Shown here: positions 2,560-51,825 of the stretch, in pieces
Position numbering within the stretch: position 1 is the stretch's first letter
How the letters are laid out: every line of letters begins with the position of its first letter
From: Escherichia phage Andreotti
Sequence record: MN850610.1
Direction: 5' to 3' (one strand)
DNA length: 64,000 nucleotides
The notes under the pieces: generated by a model
What the model was told of the DNA's origin: nothing
Databases searched by the model: none
What the model saw: only the letters and a program-made list of their open reading frames with translations
Position numbers and translations under genes: made by a program

Positions 2560-3286
2560 CCCCTTTTAACCAGCACTTCAGGTTATTAGCATCATAATTC
2601 AGTTTCGGGTATGAGGTTACATGGAACTGCTCACCATCATAGTAGACAATATCTGCAATCCATAGTCCGTTCTCTTTACAGAAGTCTTTATCTGCTTTAG
2701 AGGTAATTGGATTAACTTCTACAAAACCATCTACACCCAAATCCTTTAAGCTACCTACAATACCTTTGCAGATAACGCATGTCTCAGATACTACCACAAA
2801 AAGTTCTTGGCTTTCAAGCTCTACAATGTATTCACCAAGCTGTACTTTAGGGAGATTTGATTGCTTCATAATCTTCCCATCGTCTGCACGGACAATCGCA
2901 TACCACTCTTTACCATCAACCACTGACATTCGAATAATACACTCTTGACCAGTACGCTTCTCAATATCTGCAAGACGTTTTAAAGCTTCTTCATAGTCAT
3001 CTGTGTACTTCAGGTCATTATTATGGCAAACAGCTTTCATAGCACCGTTATGGTCATGTTGTGACAGGTAAATCAAACCGTCAAGAACATATTGCAAATC
3101 TGCCTGAGCATCCAGTGTCTCAATGGGGTCTTTCTCTTCAATTGCTTTTACAAGCTCTTTTGCTTCTTCAAGCATACACAGAGATTGAGATTTTAAAGAT
3201 TCCCAATACTCATTACTGTAAGGTTGCTTTTGAGTGTTTCCACAACGAAGGTTCCAGTTTTTTACTGATTCTCTTGAGTTAAACAT
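2531..3286 (-). CDS. hypothetical protein (251 aa); N-terminal helical region weakly reminiscent of MazG-type NTP pyrophosphohydrolases
   Basis: ORF track; segment EEAKELVKAIEEKDPIETLDAQADLQYVLDGL resembles the EExxEL...DxL pattern; unverified. Confidence 0.5.
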   Translation of the reverse strand: MFNSRESVKNWNLRCGNTQKQPYSNEYWESLKSQSLCMLEEAKELVKAIEEKDPIETLDAQADLQYVLDGLIYLSQHDHNGAMKAVCHNNDLKYTDDYEEALKRLADIEKRTGQECIIRMSVVDGKEWYAIVRADDGKIMKQSNLPKVQLGEYIVELESQELFVVVSETCVICKGIVGSLKDLGVDGFVEVNPITSKADKDFCKENGLWIADIVYYDGEQFHVTSYPKLNYDANNLKCWLKGVGYNGFTEH

Positions 3287-4565: not shown

Positions 4566-5553
4566 CTTTCTTGTTTCTTTCCTGATAAGCTAAGAAAAAG
4601 TGTTGCTGCATTAGCTCTAAGGGTGTTCTGGTAATTGTTTGACCATCCCACGAGACATAAGTGTATGACTCTTTCTTAGCATAAAGCTCATAAATTGCAT
4701 CAAGACACTCTTTGTAAGTGGTTTTACCTTCAAGGGCTTTCATTATAGTAACCTTACCAACACCCTTTAAACCAAAATAGTTATCCGCATTATCACCAGC
4801 CACAGCTTGGTAACAAAGAAATTTAAAACCTACCCCAACTGTCTTCTTAGCTTTTGGTGTCGATTTTATTGGGCAATCCCAAATTTCACCAACGTTGTTA
4901 TCAGCAATGAAAATCAAAGGTGACTTTTCATAGGTCATATCAATGCAGTAAGTCCCTTCAGCTTGGCGAAGGTCTTTATCAATACTCATTAAGGCAGCCT
5001 TTTTTCCCATCTTTTCAGCTTTAGCAATAACGATAGAGTCTGCTTCAAATCCATCAAGAATTAGTTTGAACTCTGGTCTTGACAGAAGATACTCACGACA
5101 AGCGACTAAGTGTGTTGGTGTGACAGCATCTTTACGGTTACCTTGATATTGGTGTTCAAGACCTTTAATGTCTTTATGTTTATGCACACCTTTCTCTGTT
5201 AAATAACCTACCCAAGTTCTTTCTTTACCCACAATCTTAAGCCATTCCTGAAGAACCTGTTGAGTAGCCATGATAGCTTCTTTTTCACTCTTAGCTTCTT
5301 TCCAAGTCTGTCTTTCCCATTCATCTTCATCAAATGTCAGGCCAAGTTCTTCCACAAGGATTCTCTGGTCTGCTAACCATCTTGCAGCGTCTTTCGCATT
5401 ATCAAATGGTTCAGATTCCTCTGCTGTGAGTTTATTGACATATTTATATTTTGCTTTCTCAACTACACAAGCACCTTTATAGGCAATACTGTCAGAGTCG
5501 ATAAAAACATGTGTAACTGAATCGGGAAGTTTTGGTAATGTGTACTTCTCCAT
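4507..5553 (-). CDS. 5'-3' exonuclease / flap endonuclease (FEN, T5 D15- or T7 gp6-like)
   Basis: motifs FIDSDSIAY, DGFEADSIVIA and GDNADNYFGLKGVGKVT match FEN-family acidic clusters and helix-hairpin-helix; RBS GGAGAG 5 nt upstream of ATG. Confidence 0.8.
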   Translation of the reverse strand: MEKYTLPKLPDSVTHVFIDSDSIAYKGACVVEKAKYKYVNKLTAEESEPFDNAKDAARWLADQRILVEELGLTFDEDEWERQTWKEAKSEKEAIMATQQVLQEWLKIVGKERTWVGYLTEKGVHKHKDIKGLEHQYQGNRKDAVTPTHLVACREYLLSRPEFKLILDGFEADSIVIAKAEKMGKKAALMSIDKDLRQAEGTYCIDMTYEKSPLIFIADNNVGEIWDCPIKSTPKAKKTVGVGFKFLCYQAVAGDNADNYFGLKGVGKVTIMKALEGKTTYKECLDAIYELYAKKESYTYVSWDGQTITRTPLELMQQHFFLAYQERNKKDDFTFDKYGWTPNVNSTNS

Positions 5554-6985: not shown

Positions 6986-8933
6986 TTAATACAGGTGGAA
7001 TCGTTGAGCTTTGACGCTGCTCTTCAGTATAGACTTCACCAGTCTCACGGTCAAACACTTCATCCTCATAATGTGGCAAAGAGTCATCATAATGGTCTTC
7101 AGCTTCACCAATACCAAACTGTTGGCGAATATTTTCTGCTGCGCCATCAATGTCAACTCCACAACCAGATGCTTTGATAAGACGCCCTGTATCTGGATTG
7201 TACCAAGTATGACCAGCAATACCAGTTGACTTACCATGACGACGACATTTAGTTAGCTTGATTTTTGTCAAGTTTTTCTTAACAGGGTCTGGGTCAACCT
7301 TGTTACGCATTAACAGAATGTTGTTCATAGAAATCTGGAAATACGCACCAGAACCTTTAATATCCTCTTCAGAGATATCTCCACCTTCAGAGTTAGCCTT
7401 CTGACCACCTGCACTCTTACGAACGTGACAGACGTTCACCTGTGCATACTGGTAGCGTTTGCAACGACGCAATAGCTCAGATAAAACTTCCTCTTCATCC
7501 GTATCTGAACGTGACAGAGCCAACGTAATAGGGTCAAGAATAATAATCTTACAGTCTAAGCTGTTAACAAGATAGTCAACAAACTCCAGCAAGTTATCTT
7601 GGTCAATTGCCCCTTGATGGTCAACGATGTGGATACGACGACCTTTAGACAGTTCTGCGTGTGCCTTCTTCAATTCATCCCAATCACGTTCGTCATAAGG
7701 AATCTCAGAAATCTGCTTGCTAAGGTGGATTGCACAGAGCATCTCCATCAACTCTTCATAGGTATCTTCTACAGGAATTACACCAATATTGTAATCGGTA
7801 TCTTTCCAAGCAGTATAAATCATTTCACGGGTGTAAGCTGATTTACCTACTGAGGATGGTGCTGCCAGAGTTGTAATCTCACCTAAACCGTAACCACCAT
7901 AAGTCAGTCTGTTCAAATCCCCGAAAGATTCTGGGAAAGGAATCAATGGAATCTGACCACGATTCTTCATTGCCTCAAAACCATCTGCGAAGTTCTTGAT
8001 ACCAGCAGGACAGTAACGAGGTGCATTGTAGATACGCTGCTTAAATCCTTCCAGAACTGTATCTTTCTCTTTATAGAACTTTGTCCACCATTCGTTAAGG
8101 TCTTTTACACCCTCTGGATACTGGAATAAACGAACCTTCTCAATCGGAAGGATACCAGCAGCCTCTTTGGTAGCTTTAGCACCTGCTTCATCATTATCAA
8201 AGCACAAGTAAATCTCATCAAATGATGTGATGTACTGATAGTTGTCTTTGATAGACTTAATGTTTGCACCTGATGGGACAGATACGTGACAGTAATTCTT
8301 ACGACGAGACTTGTCCTTAATCGCAAGAGAAGTCATATAGATTGCTGTCGCACATTCCATCTCACCTTCCCAGATGAATAGGCGGTTACCACCTTCTGGA
8401 GCAATCCATGAACCGAACATTGCAAGTTCACCTTTAATATCTCCAACACCACCAGAAAAGTCTTTTAGCTTACCACGTAGGTGCTCTTTTGGATGGTCTT
8501 CTGGATAACGATGACGTACACGGTAACCGACGTGCTCTAGCTTACCATCTTCATTACGTTTGTAAGTTGGATAGAAATGCGCATCAATTTCACCGTCACT
8601 GTCAATGTCAACCTTGATACCCAAACGCTCAAGAACTTTTGCAGGAATCTTCCTATCCTTTAAGTCCATTGCTTCAAGGTTTTCTTTGACATCTTCTAAA
8701 TCCATTCCACGGAAAGTACGGTTTTTATTGTCTGAACCAGTAGAATAAGTGCTCACGATTTGTCCTTTATCAAAATCCCACTCTGGGAAACCTTTGTTAC
8801 AGCTAAAGCAAGTCATCGAATAAGAATCATCGTCATGATGATAGATTGAACCAGCATCTGATGAACCACAACGTGGACATGCACAATGACCAATAAACTG
8901 ACCAGCCTCTTTCAATTTACGACCTTTAGACAT
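6948..8933 (-). CDS. bifunctional DNA primase/helicase (T7 gp4-like)
   Basis: N-terminal Cys4 zinc ribbon (CPRCGSSD...CFSC), central TOPRIM-like region, C-terminal Walker A GLGEITTLAAPSSVGKS and Walker B IIILDPITLA; start moved to ATG at 8933 with GAAGAGG RBS. Confidence 0.85.
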   Translation of the reverse strand: MSKGRKLKEAGQFIGHCACPRCGSSDAGSIYHHDDDSYSMTCFSCNKGFPEWDFDKGQIVSTYSTGSDNKNRTFRGMDLEDVKENLEAMDLKDRKIPAKVLERLGIKVDIDSDGEIDAHFYPTYKRNEDGKLEHVGYRVRHRYPEDHPKEHLRGKLKDFSGGVGDIKGELAMFGSWIAPEGGNRLFIWEGEMECATAIYMTSLAIKDKSRRKNYCHVSVPSGANIKSIKDNYQYITSFDEIYLCFDNDEAGAKATKEAAGILPIEKVRLFQYPEGVKDLNEWWTKFYKEKDTVLEGFKQRIYNAPRYCPAGIKNFADGFEAMKNRGQIPLIPFPESFGDLNRLTYGGYGLGEITTLAAPSSVGKSAYTREMIYTAWKDTDYNIGVIPVEDTYEELMEMLCAIHLSKQISEIPYDERDWDELKKAHAELSKGRRIHIVDHQGAIDQDNLLEFVDYLVNSLDCKIIILDPITLALSRSDTDEEEVLSELLRRCKRYQYAQVNVCHVRKSAGGQKANSEGGDISEEDIKGSGAYFQISMNNILLMRNKVDPDPVKKNLTKIKLTKCRRHGKSTGIAGHTWYNPDTGRLIKASGCGVDIDGAAENIRQQFGIGEAEDHYDDSLPHYEDEVFDRETGEVYTEEQRQSSTIPPVLSEDADDCPFETE

Positions 8934-9134: not shown

Positions 9135-9878
9135 TTAAATCTTCAGGATAGCTCTTAGTTTGCTCTCAAGGTCTTCAAGAGTACCATTATTATGAATAAT
9201 GTCACGCTCATATTTTGTAGAAATGCCATTTTCTGAAACATGTGATGAAACTTTGTCCACATTGTCTCTTTTTACTTCAATAGTTTGGTGTGCAAATCTA
9301 CTCAGCCACTCAGCTTCAGAGTCAAATCTTAAATCACTGATTAAAACAACACCTTCTTGATTTCTAAGTGAGCAAACATCAAAGAAATTTACCATTCGTT
9401 TTTCGAGGTCTTTAGACCAGAACTTGTCACCCATAACTTTACGGATAACTTCAGTGCCCCAAATCTGTTGAATTTGTCTTGATGAGAATTTATACTTTTT
9501 ACTAAATCCCAGACGTGTTAATAGAGTCGGTTTAGCAACCTTCTTAAGCTCCATGATTAATCGTCCGGTTAACTCTGACATAAGCTTAAAATCCATATGG
9601 TAACGTTCGCCTTTGAAGGTGAACTCCATAGCTTCAGTAACTTTGAACATTAGCTCAGGATATGATAAGTCAAATACCTGTGGAGTCTCTTTAGTTTCAC
9701 CATACAGGTCATTCCAAGTCAGGTCAAATATCTTTGATGCAGATAGCTTAAGGTTGTCTGCATAAGCCATTACAGCAACATTATAGCCATATTCATCCTC
9801 TAAGATGTTCTTCACAATAGAACATGAGGTGTCTTTTCCAGAACGTGCCTTTCCAGTAAATGCGATAATATTACTCAT
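9135..9878 (-). CDS. deoxynucleoside monophosphate kinase (T4 gp1-like)
   Basis: N-terminal P-loop IAFTGKARSGKDT similar to T4 dNMP kinase FLSGVKRSGKDT; about 240 aa. Confidence 0.7.
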   Translation of the reverse strand: MSNIIAFTGKARSGKDTSCSIVKNILEDEYGYNVAVMAYADNLKLSASKIFDLTWNDLYGETKETPQVFDLSYPELMFKVTEAMEFTFKGERYHMDFKLMSELTGRLIMELKKVAKPTLLTRLGFSKKYKFSSRQIQQIWGTEVIRKVMGDKFWSKDLEKRMVNFFDVCSLRNQEGVVLISDLRFDSEAEWLSRFAHQTIEVKRDNVDKVSSHVSENGISTKYERDIIHNNGTLEDLESKLRAILKI

Positions 9879-46540: not shown

Positions 46541-46616
46541 TAAAATAACTTGGAGAATCCGAAGGGACTCGAACCCTTATAAACCTGTTTTGCAGACAGG
46601 CACATATCCATTTCTG
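46541..46616 (-). tRNA. tRNA-Cys (anticodon GCA)
   Basis: manual cloverleaf: 7-bp acceptor GAATCCG/CGGATTC, T-arm AAGGG-TTCGAGT-CCCTT, anticodon loop CUGCAAA, CCA encoded. Confidence 0.75.
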
Positions 46617-46620
46617 TCAC

Positions 46621-46713
46621 GGATTCAAATTGGAGGAAGATACCAGACTTGAACTGGTACACCGATTTCTCAGCTACTGGCAGTTTAGCAAACTGCTCCC
46701 TTACCTTTTAGGG
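46621..46713 (-). tRNA. tRNA-Ser (anticodon GCU), class II with long variable arm
   Basis: 93 nt; acceptor GGAAGAT/ATCTTCC, anticodon stem GCAGT/ACTGC, loop UUGCUAA, T-loop TTCAAGT. Confidence 0.7.
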
Positions 46714-46724
46714 TTAATCTTCCA

Positions 46725-47459
46725 TTATTTCTGTAATGCGCTCTTCATTTCTGGTGTTGCAATAGTGTCAATCACACCAGTTTTACAAGCATCGTCAAAC
46801 CAGTCTGGTAAGATACCTGCTAAGAACCCATTGATATTCGTTTTAAGGTACTCTGCAATAAGGGCAGCTTCTTCTTCAATCATCTGCACAACTTCATCTG
46901 CATAAGCTGTAATCTTTGAAATACCTTCATTAATCTTACTGACAGCTTGGTTAGCTAAATCAGAAACAGTATCAAGACCCTTATCAATAGCATCTTGTAA
47001 GTCACTTAACACACCATTAACACTATCTAGTGTACTGTTCATCATGTCAATAGCTTTTTGACCATACTCTGTAGCAACACCCATGATACCACTGAATGGT
47101 GTACAACCAACTTGTTCTCCTGCTGCACCCATAACATTGGAATACCCCTTTGCTACCTGCATACGTGATGAAAACTCATCAATAGATTTTTGACCGTAGT
47201 CTGTCAGAGTTTTAGTAGTTGCTGTAGTGCTTGTAAGGCTTGTTGTAAAGCTGTTTAGAAGGACTGTTGTAAGTCCAGCAGCAACAAGTTTCTCCTTCAT
47301 TGTAGGGTCTGTTACAGAACTAATAGAGCTTACAAGTGATGTAGAAGCAGCTACGGTTCCACCGAGAACTGCTGCACCAGTAATAAGCGGGTTAGAGAAC
47401 CCTTTACCAGTTTTTAAGAGATTAAAAATCTCCTTACCTTGTTCTGTCATCTCTTTCAT
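46725..47459 (-). CDS. hypothetical protein (244 aa) embedded in tRNA array
   Basis: track ORF 46725-47522 trimmed to ATG 47459 (MKEMTEQ...) so it does not overlap tRNA-Phe; Ser/Thr/Ala-rich. Confidence 0.55.
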   Translation of the reverse strand: MKEMTEQGKEIFNLLKTGKGFSNPLITGAAVLGGTVAASTSLVSSISSVTDPTMKEKLVAAGLTTVLLNSFTTSLTSTTATTKTLTDYGQKSIDEFSSRMQVAKGYSNVMGAAGEQVGCTPFSGIMGVATEYGQKAIDMMNSTLDSVNGVLSDLQDAIDKGLDTVSDLANQAVSKINEGISKITAYADEVVQMIEEEAALIAEYLKTNINGFLAGILPDWFDDACKTGVIDTIATPEMKSALQK

Positions 47460-47475
47460 TAAGCACCTTTGAAAT

Positions 47476-47552
47476 TGGTAGTCCAGTGGGATTTGAACCC
47501 TCTTCTCATGTTTTTCAGACACGCGCTTTAACCATATAAGCTACTTGGACTA
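47476..47552 (-). tRNA. tRNA-Phe (anticodon GAA), tentative
   Basis: anticodon arm CGTGT-CUGAAAA-ACATG; T-loop TTCAAAT with one stem mismatch; ends approximate. Confidence 0.55.
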
Positions 47553-47557
47553 TAAAT

Positions 47558-47633
47558 TGGGGTGACCTACGGGATTTGAACCCGTATAGACCATGTTCAC
47601 AGCATGGGTCATTACCGTTTATGATAAGGCCAC
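47558..47633 (-). tRNA. tRNA-His (anticodon GUG)
   Basis: acceptor with one G-U, T-arm ACGGG-TTCAAAT-CCCGT, anticodon stem CCATG/CATGG, CCA encoded. Confidence 0.7.
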
Positions 47634-47664
47634 ATTTAAGGACTCTCGCAAGAATCCTTAGAAG

Positions 47665-47740
47665 TGGCAGCGGCATAAGGATTTGAACCTTAATAGGACA
47701 GCTTCAGAGGCTGCTGCATTGCCAGTTATGCTATACCGCT
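47665..47740 (-). tRNA. tRNA-Gln (anticodon CUG)
   Basis: T-arm TAAGG-TTCAAAT-CCTTA; anticodon loop CUCUGAA; CCA encoded. Confidence 0.65.
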
Positions 47741-47745
47741 AAATT

Positions 47746-47824
47746 TGGTACTCCATATCGGATTCGAACCGATACATAACACAGATTTTAAGTCTGGCCT
47801 CTCTGCCAATTGGAGTAATGGAGC
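47746..47824 (-). tRNA. tRNA with Leu anticodon UAA, short variable region (atypical)
   Basis: T-arm ATCGG-TTCGAAT-CCGAT, anticodon loop CUUAAAA, D-loop AAUUGGCAG, A73, CCA encoded, 79 nt. Confidence 0.55.
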
Positions 47825-47826
47825 AT

Positions 47827-47902
47827 TGGCGGGGGATGTTGGAATTGAACCAACTTCTTCGATTTCAAAGACCGAGGTTTTAACCTTGTAAACTAATCCC
47901 CT
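47827..47902 (-). tRNA. tRNA-Gln (anticodon UUG)
   Basis: T-arm GTTGG-TTCAATT-CCAAC, anticodon loop CUUUGAA; 1-72 mismatch. Confidence 0.6.
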
Positions 47903-47910
47903 TTAAATCT

Positions 47911-48468
47911 TTACTTTCTCAGTGGATGAATAAAGAATGCCAACATAACTCTTTCCCTTGAGAATGCTCTTTCTTCTGGGACAACACTTTTTAGTTTCCA
48001 TCCAACATAAATTCTCCAGTAAAACTGTTTACCAAAGATTTTAATTGACGGAATAAAAGCGAATAATCCCCAAGCATTGTTGTTCCACATTAGGAGATAA
48101 CCTGTCTGATTATCTTCAGGGTCAGAACTTACGTTGATATTACCTTTCCACTTAGTAACATCTTTTACATCTCTTCCTAATACATGGTAAGAGAAGTTAT
48201 AAGCTTTGTTTCTCCAGAGCCATCCAACTCTCTGCATATAAACACCGAGCTTGCCAATCTTTCTAATCTTAGCCCATCTCTCAACGTGGCCTTTATCACC
48301 ATCAATCGGGTTGTCATAGGTCTCCATCCATCTGAATCCAAAAGGTAGATGCCCTTTCTTCTCACTGTAGAATGGAACTACGAAAGGTGCTAAGATGACT
48401 GCTAGGGTTGCTGCAAATGGTTCTAGTAAAGCTAGGAAAATCCATGAAGCATACTTCAAATATCTCAT
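47911..48468 (-). CDS. hypothetical membrane protein (185 aa) within tRNA array
   Basis: N-terminal hydrophobic segment WIFLALLEPFAATLAVILAPFVVPF; AAGAGG RBS. Confidence 0.55.
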   Translation of the reverse strand: MRYLKYASWIFLALLEPFAATLAVILAPFVVPFYSEKKGHLPFGFRWMETYDNPIDGDKGHVERWAKIRKIGKLGVYMQRVGWLWRNKAYNFSYHVLGRDVKDVTKWKGNINVSSDPEDNQTGYLLMWNNNAWGLFAFIPSIKIFGKQFYWRIYVGWKLKSVVPEERAFSRERVMLAFFIHPLRK

Positions 48469-48486
48469 CTAAATAGCCTCTTAAAA

Positions 48487-48564
48487 TTGGTGTTCCAAGA
48501 CGGATTCGAACCGTCACTAATACAAGGTTTGAGCTTGCATCCTCTGCCAATTGGGATACTGGAA
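48487..48564 (-). tRNA. tRNA with Leu anticodon CAA, short variable region (atypical)
   Basis: T-arm GACGG-TTCGAAT-CCGTC, anticodon arm GCAAG-CUCAAAC-CUUGU, D-loop AAUUGGCAG, A73. Confidence 0.55.
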
Positions 48565-48565
48565 C

Positions 48566-48640
48566 ATGGTACTCACTAAAGGACTTGAACCTTTTTCTTC
48601 ATCTTGTAAGGGTGATGTTTTACCATATAAACTAAGCGAG
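48566..48640 (-). tRNA. tRNA-Val (anticodon UAC)
   Basis: T-arm AAAGG-TTCAAGT-CCTTT; anticodon stem 5 bp incl. G-U, loop CUUACAA. Confidence 0.7.
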
Positions 48641-48736
48641 TGTGAAAGAGGTCTGAAGTTGTGCCGCTAACTCAACTCCGTGGAATTTGTTACGGTCTTC
48701 AGTTGACACCAGCGGTCTTTCACTTGACCTCTGAAT

Positions 48737-48813
48737 TGGTGCTGCTCACAGGACTCGAACCTGCATTTCCATCCTTACAAGGGATGTGTAATAGCCAATT
48801 ATACGAAAGCAGC
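48737..48813 (-). tRNA. tRNA-Thr (anticodon UGU)
   Basis: T-loop TTCGAGT; anticodon stem 5 bp, loop CUUGUAA. Confidence 0.7.
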
Positions 48814-48819
48814 ATTGTT

Positions 48820-48894
48820 TGGAGCATCCAGAGGGAATCGAACCCTCAACCTCAGTTTGGAAGACTGTAATTTTCCCGTTTAAACTATGGATGC
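48820..48894 (-). tRNA. tRNA-Gly (anticodon UCC)
   Basis: perfect acceptor, T-arm GAGGG-TTCGATT-CCCTC, anticodon loop CUUCCAA. Confidence 0.7.
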
Positions 48895-48900
48895 ACTAAT

Positions 48901-48976
48901 TGGTGGAGTCACTGAGAATTGAACTCAGTTCCCAAGTTTGCAAAACTCGAATTTTAACCATATAAACTATGACCCC
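48901..48976 (-). tRNA. tRNA-Ala (anticodon UGC)
   Basis: G3-U70 pair in acceptor (Ala identity element); T-arm CTGAG-TTCAATT-CTCAG; anticodon loop UUUGCAA. Confidence 0.7.
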
Positions 48977-48982
48977 ATTGTT

Positions 48983-49058
48983 TGGTACAGGTGGAGGGAA
49001 TTGAACCCATCGTCTTACTGATTAAGAGTCAGCCGCATAACCATTTTGCTACACCTGC
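48983..49058 (-). tRNA. tRNA-Lys (anticodon CUU), tentative
   Basis: T-loop TTCAATT with one stem mismatch; anticodon loop CUCUUAA. Confidence 0.55.
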
Positions 49059-49065
49059 ATTAATT

Positions 49066-49143
49066 TGGTAGGAGACAAGGGATTCGAACCCTCAAACATC
49101 TCGTTCTAAGCGAGATAGGTTTACCAATTACCGTCAATCTCCC
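49066..49143 (-). tRNA. tRNA with Leu anticodon UAG, short variable region (atypical)
   Basis: anticodon arm TCTCG-CUUAGAA-CGAGA perfect; T-loop TTCGAAT; D-loop AAUUGGUAA; A73. Confidence 0.55.
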
Positions 49144-49400
49144 ATTAAATCTTTTTAGAGAACTCCTAAGAACCTAAGCAACAAGGTTCCACAACAAGCT
49201 GTAATAACCTTAGAAGCCCTCTAAAAAGACCTAAAAAGGTCTTTGCATAGTCTTGTTTAATCCGGTGACTAGAACCTTTGGAGAGCTTGATATTATCTCT
49301 TCTCCGTGACACCTACTAGGTGTTTTATCAGTGTGTACGACAATACACGAGGGATACCAAAGCAACATCCGAATGAAGCTTGGCTTTAAATCTTATTAGG

Positions 49401-49488
49401 CGGTAAGTAAAGGAGTCGAACCCTCACCGTATCTCTACAGTGGCAACTGTTTTCAAGACAGTTTGGCTACCATTAGCCGCTACCTACC
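49401..49488 (-). tRNA. tRNA-Ser (anticodon UGA), class II
   Basis: 88 nt; 6-bp anticodon stem AACTGT/ACAGTT, loop CUUGAAA; 19-nt variable arm; T-loop TTCGACT; CCA not encoded. Confidence 0.65.
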
Positions 49489-49501
49489 CCTAATAAGATT
49501 T

Positions 49502-49584
49502 TGGCATGGGACGGAGGAGTTGAACCCCTTTGAAACGGTGTTGGAAGCCGTTGCTCATGCCTTAGAGTCTTAACATCGTCCCAT
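49502..49584 (-). tRNA. tRNA-Trp (anticodon CCA) with enlarged D region
   Basis: perfect acceptor ATGGGAC/GTCCCAT, anticodon arm ACGGC-UUCCAAC-ACCGU; about 7 extra nt between acceptor and anticodon stem. Confidence 0.5.
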
Positions 49585-49724
49585 ACTATAATTCGAAGCT
49601 TACCGTATTATCTCAACACTGTAAAGCCCCTTCTCAGATTATTTACATGTTCTGGAAAACATGAGATACAGACCACCTCCCTACAGGAAGACCCGCTAAG
49701 GTCGTCTAAGTAATCTGCTAACTA

Positions 49725-49801
49725 ATTGGCACACCCTACAGGATTCGAACCTGTAACTAACGATTTAGAAGACCGTTGCTCTATCCAATTGAACTAAGGG
49801 T
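49725..49801 (-). tRNA. tRNA-Arg (anticodon UCU)
   Basis: T-arm ACAGG-TTCGAAT-CCTGT; anticodon loop CUUCUAA. Confidence 0.65.
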
Positions 49802-50049
49802 GCATTAATCTTTAAAGACTCTCTTAGAAAGCCCTTAAAGATGCCCACCTTATTAATCATACCGTGGGCGAGTACGCCAAATTCTTTGATGAGGGATTGG
49901 AAGACCTCACTGGTGTTTAGCCTATCAAGCTACTGCCAGAAAAACATTGTCGTTTGCATTTATTTTAAATTTGCAAAATAGACGCTACGCAACGAAAACT
50001 AAGGGTACTATAAAGTAGTCACATCTCAATGTCAACAACTTTATTGAAT

Positions 50050-50124
50050 TTGGTTGTAGGTGAGGGTATCGAACCCTCTTCTAACGGTTATCAGCCGTTT
50101 GCATTACCATTTATGCTAACCCAC
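50050..50124 (-). tRNA. tRNA-Ile (anticodon GAU)
   Basis: T-arm GAGGG-TTCGATA-CCCTC; perfect 5-bp anticodon stem, loop CUGAUAA. Confidence 0.75.
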
Positions 50125-50126
50125 AA

Positions 50127-50203
50127 TTGGAGGTTCAGATGGGATTCGAACCCACATTCATAGGGCTTATGAGACCCTTGCATTACCTTATCTGCGACTG
50201 AAC
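50127..50203 (-). tRNA. tRNA-Met (anticodon CAU), elongator-type
   Basis: perfect acceptor GGTTCAG/CTGAACC; T-loop TTCGAAT; anticodon loop CUCAUAA. Confidence 0.65.
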
Positions 50204-50207
50204 CATT

Positions 50208-50283
50208 TTGGTAGAAGTGGAGGGATTCGAACCCATCGCCTGTCAGATTAAAAGTCTGCCGCATCACCATTCTGCTACACTTC
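50208..50283 (-). tRNA. tRNA-Lys (anticodon UUU)
   Basis: T-loop TTCGAAT; anticodon loop CUUUUAA. Confidence 0.6.
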
Positions 50284-50293
50284 CATTAAATTA

Positions 50294-50440
50294 TCTTTGT
50301 AGATAAGCTACCCAGACTTGCTTAAGGTCTGTAGCGATGTGCCTTTATGGGTTTAAAATCTAGAATTTACCCTTTCACCCTTTGTGGTCGCATACTCACA
50401 GGTAAGCTTAATAACTTATCTACAAAGATAATTACCAGAC
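50294..50440 (-). repeat. structured non-coding element bounded by a perfect 17-bp inverted repeat
   Basis: TTATCTTTGTAGATAAG (50294-50310) and its exact reverse complement (50424-50440) enclose 113 nt containing nested inverted repeat GCTACCCAGAC / GTCTGTAGC. Confidence 0.6.
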
Positions 50441-50713
50441 CGTTATTTATCATCTTAAGTGCTACCATTACACCAACTCGACATCTGCCGAGTGAAGGAA
50501 TCGAACCTTCGCCTTTTCTTTACCGAGAAATAGATTGTTTAAGTTTTGCTGTAAACGGTCTTCTGTAAATTTGTTGAGCCAGACCAAGTTTTAAATTTTT
50601 CAAAATTGAATTGGCTTGAAATTTTAAGTAACTTGCTGAATTTGGTCTTCTGCTCCTTTAAAGGATACTCGTAAGAACCCTTTAAGGGAGGGGCTAAATA
50701 GCCCTCTCAAAAT

Positions 50714-50789
50714 TGGCGAGGTATGCGAGAATCGAACTCGCGGCTCAGGAGAGACAGTCCCGTATTTTGCCCATCTAAACTAATACCCC
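50714..50789 (-). tRNA. tRNA-Asp (anticodon GUC), tentative
   Basis: acceptor GGGGTAT/ATACCTC, T-arm GCGAG-TTCGATT-CTCGC; anticodon loop CUGUCUC has U at position 37. Confidence 0.55.
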
Positions 50790-50795
50790 AAAAAT

Positions 50796-51224
50796 CTATG
50801 TACCATTTCTTAGGTACTTCTCTTTACGCCTTGCTGGATTGTAGTGCTTGCGTCCTTCTGCGTTTTTAGCAAGTCTGCAAGGTTCACACCTACAACCTCT
50901 TCTATAACCAGACACTGTGCCATGTTTAATTGGTGTGTATTTCCTATCACCAATCTGGGCTGGCCTAGTTGCTTTTGAATTACATTGTATGTGGCTGTAA
51001 GATATATTGTCAAGTGAGAAGAAAAGCTCTTTTGCATTCTCTTCATGTCTCCAAGGAACTTTATGTTCTATAGAGAAATCAACTCTGGACATTTCTTTTC
51101 CACAATGGTGACACTTATTCTGTCCAGTTTTACAAACCAAATCAAAGAGTAAATCTTTAACAAGCCTGTTCTGGGCTGTTCCTAAGCTCATACCAAGTTG
51201 TGACTTGTAAACTTCATTCTTCAT
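50796..51224 (-). CDS. HNH endonuclease (putative homing endonuclease) inside tRNA array
   Basis: CHHCGKEMSRVDFSIEHKVPWRHEEN...H (HNH-type His/Asn spacing); C-terminal GYRRGCRCEPCR. Confidence 0.7.
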   Translation of the reverse strand: MKNEVYKSQLGMSLGTAQNRLVKDLLFDLVCKTGQNKCHHCGKEMSRVDFSIEHKVPWRHEENAKELFFSLDNISYSHIQCNSKATRPAQIGDRKYTPIKHGTVSGYRRGCRCEPCRLAKNAEGRKHYNPARRKEKYLRNGT

Positions 51225-51246
51225 AGTATCAACATCTTATTAAAAT

Positions 51247-51331
51247 TGGTGCGCCCATCTGGACTCGAACCAGAAACCTTGAAAGGGACAGTTTTACAGA
51301 CTGCTGCATTGACCATCTCTGCCATGAACGC
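51247..51331 (-). tRNA. tRNA-Tyr (anticodon GUA), class II
   Basis: 85 nt; T-arm TCTGG-TTCGAGT-CCAGA; anticodon loop CUGUAAA; hairpin variable arm; CCA encoded. Confidence 0.65.
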
Positions 51332-51341
51332 ATTTAAATTT

Positions 51342-51418
51342 TGGCGGTTAGTCAGGGATTCGAACCCTGTGCCATTCGCTTAACAGGCGACCGCACATAC
51401 CTTATGTGCTTCCTAACC
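51342..51418 (-). tRNA. tRNA-Asn (anticodon GUU)
   Basis: T-arm CAGGG-TTCGAAT-CCCTG; anticodon loop CUGUUAA. Confidence 0.65.
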
Positions 51419-51495
51419 TTAATACATTGCCAGACCGTGTTTTTTCTTTTATCCGCAAAAAGTATTTTGTTGCTGTAAACGGTCTTCTGTAAATT

Positions 51496-51571
51496 TGGAG
51501 GCGGGTGCAGGAGTCGAACCTGCCGATACCATGCTAATGAGACATGTGAGACGCCCTTTCTCTATACCCGC
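51496..51571 (-). tRNA. second CAU-anticodon tRNA (Met, or Ile2 via lysidine), irregular acceptor
   Basis: T-arm GCAGG-TTCGACT-CCTGC; anticodon loop CUCAUUA; acceptor pairs only with a 1-nt register shift. Confidence 0.45.
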
Positions 51572-51663
51572 AATTCTTAATGACCAGACCAAATCTCTTC
51601 TTTGTCCGATTTACCTTCAGATGAATAAGATTAAGTTTGCTGTAATTGGTCTTCTGTCAAAAC

Positions 51664-51741
51664 TGGCGTTCCAGAAGGGATTTGAACCCTCAGATATCCA
51701 CTTTGAAAGAGTGGTGACTATACCATTTTGTCTACTGGAAC
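51664..51741 (-). tRNA. tRNA-Glu (anticodon UUC)
   Basis: perfect acceptor; T-loop TTCAAAT; perfect 5-bp anticodon stem, loop CUUUCAA. Confidence 0.7.
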
Positions 51742-51748
51742 ATTAATT

Positions 51749-51825
51749 TGGTCTCTGTTGGAGGATTTGAACCTCCGGCCTTACCGCCCCAAACGGAACG
51801 CTCTACCAAGCTGAGCTAAACAGAG
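51749..51825 (-). tRNA. tRNA-Pro (anticodon UGG)
   Basis: perfect acceptor CTCTGTT/AACAGAG, T-arm GGAGG-TTCAAAT-CCTCC, anticodon loop UUUGGGG (G37). Confidence 0.7.

Follow-up and report, generated by a model that had tools for sequence, protein, structure and literature searches.

Three tRNA-Leu genes with short variable loops in the tRNA array of a Felix O1-like coliphage

The window considered here is a stretch of 64,000 nucleotides (nt) from Escherichia phage Andreotti (sequence record MN850610.1), a Felix O1-like myovirus of Salmonella and Escherichia coli which belongs to Felixounavirus and is 98-99% identical to Felix O1 over the window. It contains an array of transfer RNA (tRNA) genes, and three of these genes combine a leucine anticodon with a class I tRNA body and a variable loop that has no fewer than 5 nt, position 48 among them, i.e. 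the architecture called type I tRNA-Leu. The genes were called with ARAGORN and scored against the Rfam family RF00005, for which the gathering score is 29 bits, and they were compared with the syntenic annotated array of Felix O1 (NC_005282), where the same three genes are annotated as tRNA-Leu. The array and its three Leu genes are located as follows:

46551..51825, minus strand: tRNA array of 25 genes with a few open reading frames (ORFs) interspersed (ARAGORN, Rfam, syntenic annotated Felix O1 array NC_005282)
47746..47824, minus strand: type I tRNA-Leu(UAA) (ARAGORN; Rfam RF00005, 47.5 bits)
48488..48565, minus strand: type I tRNA-Leu(CAA) (ARAGORN; Rfam RF00005, 44.0 bits)
49066..49143, minus strand: type I tRNA-Leu(UAG) (ARAGORN; Rfam RF00005, 44.5 bits)

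The ARAGORN calls agree with the three anticodons given in the initial annotation, and all three genes score above the Rfam gathering score. The coordinates proposed there were exact for the UAA and UAG genes, but those of the CAA gene (48487-48564) were shifted by one base. A tRNA-Leu annotation of these genes is present in more than 250 GenBank records, and the Felix O1 genome paper of 2010 gives all three as Leu without any structural remark (PMC3185647). Hence, the genes themselves are already known, while their short-arm architecture seems to have gone unremarked before.

Including the genomically encoded CCA the UAA, CAA and UAG tRNAs measure 79, 78 and 78 nt, and through the discriminator 76, 75 and 75 nt. 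Their variable regions, counted in the canonical 44-48 numbering, are GUUAUGU (7 nt), AUUAGU (6 nt) and UGUUU (5 nt), respectively, which bears out the total lengths of 78-79 nt and the variable regions of 5-7 nt reported initially. ARAGORN draws an additional 26-44 pair in two of the three tRNAs, and the variable region of Leu(CAA) shortens to 5 nt when U26-A44 is counted as a pair. Otherwise the canonical tRNA features are found, namely an acceptor stem of 7 base pairs (bp), a D-arm, a 5-bp anticodon stem with a 7-nt loop including U33, and a 5-bp T-stem with its T-loop. None of the three has the stem-loop of about 10 nt or more that makes up the variable arm of class II tRNAs. We also looked for an alternative fold with a canonical long arm, which would have contradicted the initial reading, but RNAfold, ARAGORN and Rfam all yielded a short variable region; because the molecules are only 75-76 nt long, no fold with a long class II arm is possible.

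The other class II families of the same array keep their arms:

46631..46723, minus strand: tRNA-Ser(GCU), 93 nt, long variable arm present (ARAGORN)
49399..49488, minus strand: tRNA-Ser(UGA), 90 nt, long variable arm present (ARAGORN)
51247..51331, minus strand: tRNA-Tyr(GUA), 85 nt, long variable arm present (ARAGORN)

The contrast with Ser and Tyr drawn in the initial annotation was thus correct, as was its 85 nt for Tyr; its range of 88-93 nt for Ser was only approximate.

For Escherichia coli the identity set of leucyl-tRNA synthetase (LeuRS) comprises A73, A14 with U8, the A15-U48 Levitt pair, G18G19 with U55/C56, U54-A58 and the position of a nucleotide that stays unpaired at the 3' base of the arm; the anticodon is dispensable for leucylation, as are the sequence and the fold of the long arm (PMC9976931; PMC6614811). 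All three phage tRNAs possess the A73 discriminators already noted in the first description, and also U8, A14, A15, the T-loop UUCGAAU and a U directly 5' of the T-stem; their G18G19 stand in the same register as those of the host. The D-loops, likewise described there as Leu-like, follow the pattern AAUUGGYA(G/A)A in the same register as in the host genes leuZ, leuW, leuX and leuV. In the UAA and CAA tRNAs, which share the D-loop AAUUGGCAGA preceded by C13, the D-arm matches these host genes in length and register and corresponds to the host arm position for position, with a 3-bp stem whose two strands enclose an unpaired N13 and AAUUGGYAGA; the host form reads G13-AAUYGGUAGA and the phage form C13-AAUUGGCAGA. 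The four E. coli K-12 genes are class II (leuZ 87 nt, leuW 85 nt, leuX 85 nt, leuV 87 nt), and all enterobacterial host Leu tRNAs that were fetched are type II, unlike the phage genes.

Individually, Leu(UAA) has A73, a G1·U72 pair, a 3-bp D-stem, a C27·U43 mismatch and a variable loop that ends in U48. Leu(CAA) has A73, and its variable region also ends in U48. In Leu(UAG), which has A73, G1·U72 and a variable loop ending in U48 as well, the acceptor and D stems are joined by a 3-nt linker, UGA, followed by the D-stem pairs G11-C24, G12-C23 and U13-A22, while C10·U25 is unpaired. Its D-loop is given both as AAUUGGUAAA and as AAUUGGUAA, and position 37 is occupied by A in place of G. The same 3-nt-linker architecture recurs in several type I Leu tRNAs from IMG/VR, but these have an A10-U25 pair. 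In Felix O1 the tRNA-Leu(UAG) carries U at D-stem position 10 where the window has C, so that 10·25 is U·U there and C·U here; this U10 fits an unpaired 10·25 position after a 3-nt 8-9 linker. The G1·U72 closure of the acceptor stem occurs in 46 of 120 type I Leu tRNAs (alignment A1, described below), among them the UAA and UAG tRNAs of the window, and it is also found in host leuZ.

Marks of other identities, i.e. G3·U70 for Ala, G73 with a long arm for Ser or G-1 for His, were found in none of the three tRNAs: their 3-70 pairs are U-A, U-A and G-C, and the 7-bp acceptor stems drawn by ARAGORN begin at G1 without a paired extra 5' nucleotide. Moreover, under established identity rules Leu anticodons rule out the synthetases that read the anticodon. 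In a 2025 study of Sf14, a related Moogle-like phage, the Leu isotype model of tRNAscan-SE scored highest for the UAG, CAA and UAA tRNAs (67.4, 49.1 and 60.2, respectively); the study makes no mention of the variable region (PMC12482277).

Within the genus the genes are highly conserved. The 2-kb tRNA region is 98-99.4% identical to that of Salmonella phage Felix O1, of Shigella phage JK55 and of over 200 further Felixounavirus genomes. For Leu(UAA), 215 of the 263 phage records that matched show an identity of 99% or more, and in most Felixounavirus records the gene is 100% identical. Leu(CAA) is identical in Felix O1 and Alf5, so that the comparison with related phages suggested in the initial annotation returned the same short genes across Felixounavirus. 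Leu(UAG) exists in two forms within the genus. The form of Alf5 (3001-3078 of the Alf5 stretch) differs from that of the window at 8 positions, all of them in the anticodon stem, where three pairs have both members exchanged but still pair, and one pair has become a U·U mismatch. This conservation points to purifying selection on the Leu genes. The Alf5 anticodon stem resembles that of the T5-like phage SP15, and the two forms differ only by a wholesale swap of this stem.

Support for the short-loop cloverleaf was also obtained at the level of the family. Alignment A1, made with MAFFT, combines the three window tRNAs with 117 distinct viral type I Leu tRNAs (120 in total). Standard pairs fill 96.4% of the cells expected from the short-loop cloverleaf, compared with 34-50% when the 3' partners are slid by 1-3 columns, and the covariation score is 0.872 versus 0.12-0.16 in the slid versions. 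Double-sided changes number 947 as against 270 ± 17 in shuffles, and covariation is seen at 20 of 20 stem pairs. The A15-U48 pair is kept in 119 of 120 tRNAs, whereby the search pattern fixed A15 and left U48 free, and U8-A14 in 112 of 120. Once the variable region is masked, 77% of the type I Leu tRNAs have another type I as their nearest neighbour, although type I makes up 41% of the pool, and for 79% of the bacterial type I genes the nearest neighbour is a viral type I. These neighbour relationships argue that type I Leu forms a heritable lineage with some exchange, rather than a product of random decay.

How widely this lineage occurs was explored with a pattern that joins a D-loop and an anticodon loop of Leu type to a T-loop at class I spacing. 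In IMG/VR at least 120 loci matched. Among the matches listed, ARAGORN assigned 115 of 123 pattern-bearing tRNAs to Leu, nearly all of them 75-79 nt long; the median number of tRNAs per locus was 11, and the Ser tRNAs in these loci were all 84-97 nt. In addition, BLAST placed type I Leu in an Acinetobacter phage. The same pattern, applied to bacteria with one genome per species, gave at least 120 matches as well. At least about 84 of these represent a conserved single-copy tRNA-Leu(UAA) of 74-77 nt in actinobacterial chromosomes, with carriers including Arthrobacter/Pseudarthrobacter, Mycobacterium, Nocardia, Rhodococcus, Gordonia and Rothia (an example is gcccccatagcccaattggcagaggcagcggacttaaaatccgccaagtgtcggttcgagtccgactgggggca); in Bifidobacterium the corresponding gene has a CAA anticodon. 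This actinobacterial distribution looks much wider than the literature states, in which the published case is only the CAA tRNA of Streptomyces coelicolor; a paper on Mycobacterium tuberculosis calls only three of its Leu tRNAs long-looped (PMC11541572). Furthermore, among the bacterial matches listed, type I Leu also resides in dense tRNA arrays (10-27 tRNAs per 8 kb) of cyanobacteria, Acidobacteria, Polyangia/myxobacteria and others, and its presence there links the phage arrays with bacterial tRNA array units. The general statement that bacterial tRNA-Leu is class II, from which the initial annotation started, is therefore true of the E. coli genes fetched but does not extend to all bacteria, as Actinobacteria show (PMC6614811). 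The rarity implied there was likewise overstated, given that type I tRNA-Leu has been published for S. coelicolor and is widespread in Actinobacteria, bacterial tRNA arrays and phages.

The frequency in phages was estimated from 114 further viral loci which were picked through an unrelated anchor, tRNA-Arg(UCU), and thus independently of Leu. In this sample 14 of 45 Leu tRNAs (31%), distributed over 8 of 30 Leu-bearing loci, were type I with a 5-nt variable loop, and A73 was present in all 14. Short Ser or Tyr tRNAs numbered 0 of 41 in the same sample (Fisher p = 4.5e-5 versus Leu). Among the class II families, loss of the arm in phages is confined to Leu, whose synthetase is known to manage without it. 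Type I Leu tends toward the larger phage tRNA arrays, with a borderline p = 0.05. No earlier description of type I tRNA-Leu in phages was found in a literature search to which subscription journals were mostly closed, and the recognition that phage tRNA arrays, those of enterobacterial phages among them, commonly have this architecture appears to be new. In textbooks and in annotation practice, the tRNA-Leu of bacteria and phages is taken to be class II; an architecture present in about one third of the sampled phage Leu tRNAs matters for tRNA annotation, for the mapping of tRNA-seq reads and for models of phage array evolution.

The Leu-independent viral sample also places the unusual position 37 of Leu(UAG) in context. 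Its anticodon loop, CUUAGAA, has A37 where host leuW has G37, the m1G37 site, and m1G37 is normal in CUN-reading Leu tRNAs. A37 occurs in 5 of 6 type I Leu(NAG) tRNAs of the sample, and G37 in 8 of 12 type II Leu(NAG) tRNAs. Such an A37 may reflect anticodon shifts from a UAA-type ancestor, and in Leu(UAG) it would imply independence from TrmD.

As to the origin of the phage genes, a recent derivation from host Leu genes by deletion of the arm was considered and rejected, as the identity to leuZ, leuW, leuX and leuV is only 53-78%, with the highest value for Leu(UAG) against leuZ. Among other coliphages, the genus Tequintavirus, with T5 and SP15, shows both architectures. T5 carries a class II tRNA-Leu(UAG) of 85 nt (9625-9709 of the T5 stretch) adjoining a tRNA-Ala. 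It is likewise a Leu isoacceptor of a coliphage array with A73, a Leu-type D-arm and an encoded CCA, but differs from the window genes by its length and its 13-nt variable arm. SP15, by contrast, has two 77-nt type I Leu genes (at 2600-2676 and 6997-7073 of the SP15 stretch), one with a UAA and one with a UAG anticodon, of which the UAG gene again adjoins tRNA-Ala, whereas its Ser (89-90 nt) and Tyr (91 nt) tRNAs both remain long. The SP15 Leu(UAG) is 75% identical to that of the window, with the T-arm and the start of the acceptor 3' strand identical, which suggests shared ancestry or exchange of Leu(UAG) between unrelated coliphages, SP15 on the one side and the Felix O1 type on the other. 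The idea that SP15 Leu(UAG) is the T5 class II gene minus its arm found no support: at 68% identity over aligned columns the two are no closer than unrelated Leu tRNAs.

Outside the phages, a close parallel is the type I tRNA-Leu(CAA) of S. coelicolor (Fan et al. 2019), a tRNA with 5 nt in its variable loop that occurs in the same cell as class II tRNAs; the single LeuRS of this organism charges it, whereby U8-A14 is important and the variable loop must have at least five nucleotides, position 48 included (PMC6614811). Its gene differs from the phage genes in that it is chromosomal, has C48 and represents one isoacceptor, while the phage has three isoacceptors with U48 and an E. coli-like D-arm. 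Moreover, features of the leucine-specific domain of the Streptomyces LeuRS permit type I charging, whereas the phage genes must work in Enterobacteria. Animal mitochondrial tRNA-Leu(UUR/CUN) also combines class I architecture with a Leu anticodon, and its identity rests mainly on A73 and A14 (PMC9976931), but it functions in organelles together with a LeuRS dedicated to it, its D or T loops are often degenerate, and it is unrelated to phage arrays. A third parallel comes from the laboratory. In work summarised in PMC9976931 (Asahara 1998, Larkin 2002), activity persisted in variants of E. coli tRNA-Leu that had no arm, and the phage tRNAs look like natural counterparts of these constructs, although the latter were made from host sequences to which the phage tRNAs are 53-78% identical. 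The short-arm feature is hence genuine but only moderately surprising, as its kind is known from Streptomyces and mitochondria.

Considering structure, identity elements and conservation together, we regard it as probable that the three genes encode functional elongator tRNA-Leu isoacceptors of type I architecture which serve ordinary codon supply. The genes are flanked as Gln-Leu-Gln, Val-Leu and Lys-Leu, with gaps of 1-7 nt to ordinary class I tRNAs (1 nt between Leu(CAA) and tRNA-Val), and because of this close spacing they are presumably co-transcribed and co-processed with their neighbours. The transcripts would be processed by host enzymes, with the CCA end already encoded in the genome, and would adopt a normal L-shape in which the elbow and core copy those of host tRNA-Leu. 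Host LeuRS would then leucylate them via the framework of A73, A14, A15-U48, G18G19-U55C56 and U54-A58. In decoding, the UAA tRNA would read UUA and UUG, the CAA tRNA UUG, and the UAG tRNA CUA and CUG. The long arm would have been lost because tRNA-Leu, alone of the three class II families, needs none for charging, whereas tRNA-Ser does.

The codon usage of the phage is in line with such a supply function. Over 43 long ORFs (13,661 codons) the Leu codons are divided into TTA 27%, CTT 27%, TTG 14%, CTG 13%, CTA 12% and CTC 7%. In E. coli CTG dominates the Leu codons, and TTA and CTA are about two to three times commoner in the AT-rich phage. The three phage anticodons match those of minor Leu tRNAs of the host. 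Leu[TTA] is one of the codons which, according to the genome paper on Felix O1, are aided by a phage tRNA; this paper describes no aminoacyl-tRNA synthetase (PMC3185647), so that the host enzyme must charge the phage Leu tRNAs. For tRNA modification, methylation by E. coli TrmL tolerates the complete deletion of the tRNA-Leu arm (the VLAD mutant) and depends on the anticodon loop and on the i6A37 made by MiaA (PMC4615657). Since TrmL is indifferent to the arm, the host could plausibly modify the UAA and CAA tRNAs too.

Nevertheless, several points weigh against functional leucine isoacceptors. In the Streptomyces study the type I tRNA-Leu(CAA) was not leucylated by E. coli LeuRS, which is called a type II-only enzyme whose leucine-specific domain favours large variable loops (PMC6614811). 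Charging or expression data for the three tRNAs were not found in the searchable literature. The phage tRNAs lack 47n, the nucleotide left unpaired at the 3' base of a long arm, Leu(UAG) combines the 3-nt 8-9 linker with the C10·U25 mismatch and A37 instead of m1G37, and Leu(UAA) has its C27·U43 mismatch. The 47n element cannot exist in a type I tRNA because there is no arm, and arm and 47n characterise the E. coli Leu family but are inessential for leucylation (PMC9976931). With regard to the Streptomyces tRNA, its variable loop ends in C48, so that it lacks A15-U48; the missing Levitt pair is a likely explanation for the failure of the E. coli enzyme, and the phage tRNAs do have U48. The phage genes sharpen the apparent conflict with the report on E. 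coli LeuRS. At the same time, the genes of the Felix O1 group offer a natural test of the claim, so far drawn from engineered mutants, that enterobacterial LeuRS ignores the long arm. The initial annotation had left the choice between compact Leu isoacceptors and tRNA-like molecules of another identity or function. The former are favoured here and the latter are much less likely, although the failure of E. coli LeuRS on the Streptomyces type I tRNA leaves real room for rival readings.

One of these readings is compatible with a Leu function, namely that loss of the arm removes a target of host anti-phage nucleases or toxins and lets the Leu supply survive an attack. There is a precedent in the PtuAB effectors of retron-Eco7 and Septu, which cut E. 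coli tRNA-Tyr in its long variable loop and are evaded or neutralised by a phage tRNA-Tyr whose variable loop is different (PMC13096335, PMC12673091). Like the Leu genes, this tRNA-Tyr is a class II family copy in a coliphage array with a variable region unlike that of the host (PMC12673091, PMC13096335). Its arm, however, is kept or even lengthened and its role has been shown by experiment, whereas the arm of the phage Leu tRNAs is deleted. Evasion would also be consistent with the borderline tendency of type I Leu toward larger arrays, with its presence in two unrelated coliphage groups (Felix O1-like phages and the T5-like SP15), and with anticodon loops that differ from those of the host Leu tRNAs (PMC12482277). 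But a nuclease that targets the variable arm of tRNA-Leu is not documented in the literature examined, the paper on SP15 and the retron contains no Leu-related data, and neutral loss of a dispensable arm or genome economy fits the data equally well. Moreover, since type I Leu is an ordinary chromosomal gene in Actinobacteria, no defence rationale is needed. We therefore consider evasion unlikely, but arm loss as an escape from nucleases that target variable loops makes a concrete defence hypothesis. In its stronger form, for which the chances appear similarly slim, enterobacterial LeuRS charges natural type I Leu and phages have repeatedly become arm-less so that their Leu supply escapes arm-recognising defences. 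If this were true, the type I Leu genes of Felix O1 and SP15 would combine codon supply with an anti-defence role. Felix O1-like phages find wide use in the typing and biocontrol of Salmonella and E. coli.

It is quite doubtful that the three tRNAs are charged poorly or not at all by enterobacterial LeuRS and act as tRNA-like decoys or sponges for nucleases or sensors, as regulators or as primers. Such roles would agree with the failure of E. coli LeuRS on a natural type I tRNA-Leu (PMC6614811), with the several non-canonical features of Leu(UAG), and with the retron/Septu literature, according to which overexpressed phage tRNAs can neutralise effectors by titration. Yet all testable LeuRS identity elements are kept, including the U48 that is absent from the Streptomyces tRNA. 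The Leu anticodons and anticodon loops are strictly conserved, and three Leu anticodons are maintained that match the codon demand of the phage; none of these features would be required in a decoy.

Charging with an amino acid other than leucine, by which UUA, UUG and CUA would be recoded or mistranslated, is highly improbable. The architecture is atypical for a host Leu tRNA, and for the UAG tRNA of Sf14 the Ile2 (65.7) and Lys (63.4) models come close to Leu (67.4), but Leu ranks first for all three Sf14 tRNAs (PMC12482277). Neither G3·U70, G73, a long arm nor an anticodon match to another synthetase was found in the window genes. Furthermore, UUA, UUG and CUA make up about 53% of the Leu codons (561 codons in 41 kb of ORFs), so that the entire proteome would suffer from recoding.

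That the genes are pseudogenes in decay or artefacts of tRNA detection is likewise highly improbable, for although the Rfam scores of 44-47.5 bits lie at the low end of the array and two of the three tRNAs have a stem mismatch, ARAGORN and Rfam agree independently, near-identical genes recur across hundreds of isolates, compensatory changes are seen within the genus and across the diverse family, and all three genes have an encoded CCA and intact T- and D-loops.

The surroundings of the Leu genes differ among close relatives. Felix O1 has a tRNA-Arg(ACG) (5088-5163 of the Felix O1 stretch) in the interval from the DUF7338 gene to Leu(CAA); this interval (48469-48487) measures only 19 nt in the window, where tRNA-Arg(ACG) is absent and a tRNA-Arg(UCU) is found at 49727-49803 instead, so that the array content varies even between such closely related phages. 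The Felix O1 array also contains HNH endonuclease genes. Inside the array of the window there are two protein genes on the minus strand:

46725-47522, minus strand: protein gene, DUF7217 (E = 3e-87)
47911-48468, minus strand: protein gene, DUF7338 (E = 3e-61), labelled membrane protein or holin in relatives

For both families the function is unassigned. Two intergenic regions also gave signals. The gap between tRNA-Arg(UCU) and tRNA-Ile (49804-50108, minus strand), with about 250 nt without a called gene, has sub-threshold Rfam matches to transfer-messenger RNA (tmRNA) and permuted tmRNA (15.9 and 30.8 bits, gathering score 47), which are probably tRNA-like noise. The 95-nt spacer between tRNA-Thr and tRNA-Val (48642-48736, minus strand) folds into a single long imperfect hairpin of -30.7 kcal/mol (z = -2.96), and 1 of 200 shuffles folds equally well; the spacer at the syntenic position of Felix O1 is also 95 nt long, a comparison of length and not of sequence. 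This hairpin may be a processing element, a terminator element or a small RNA.

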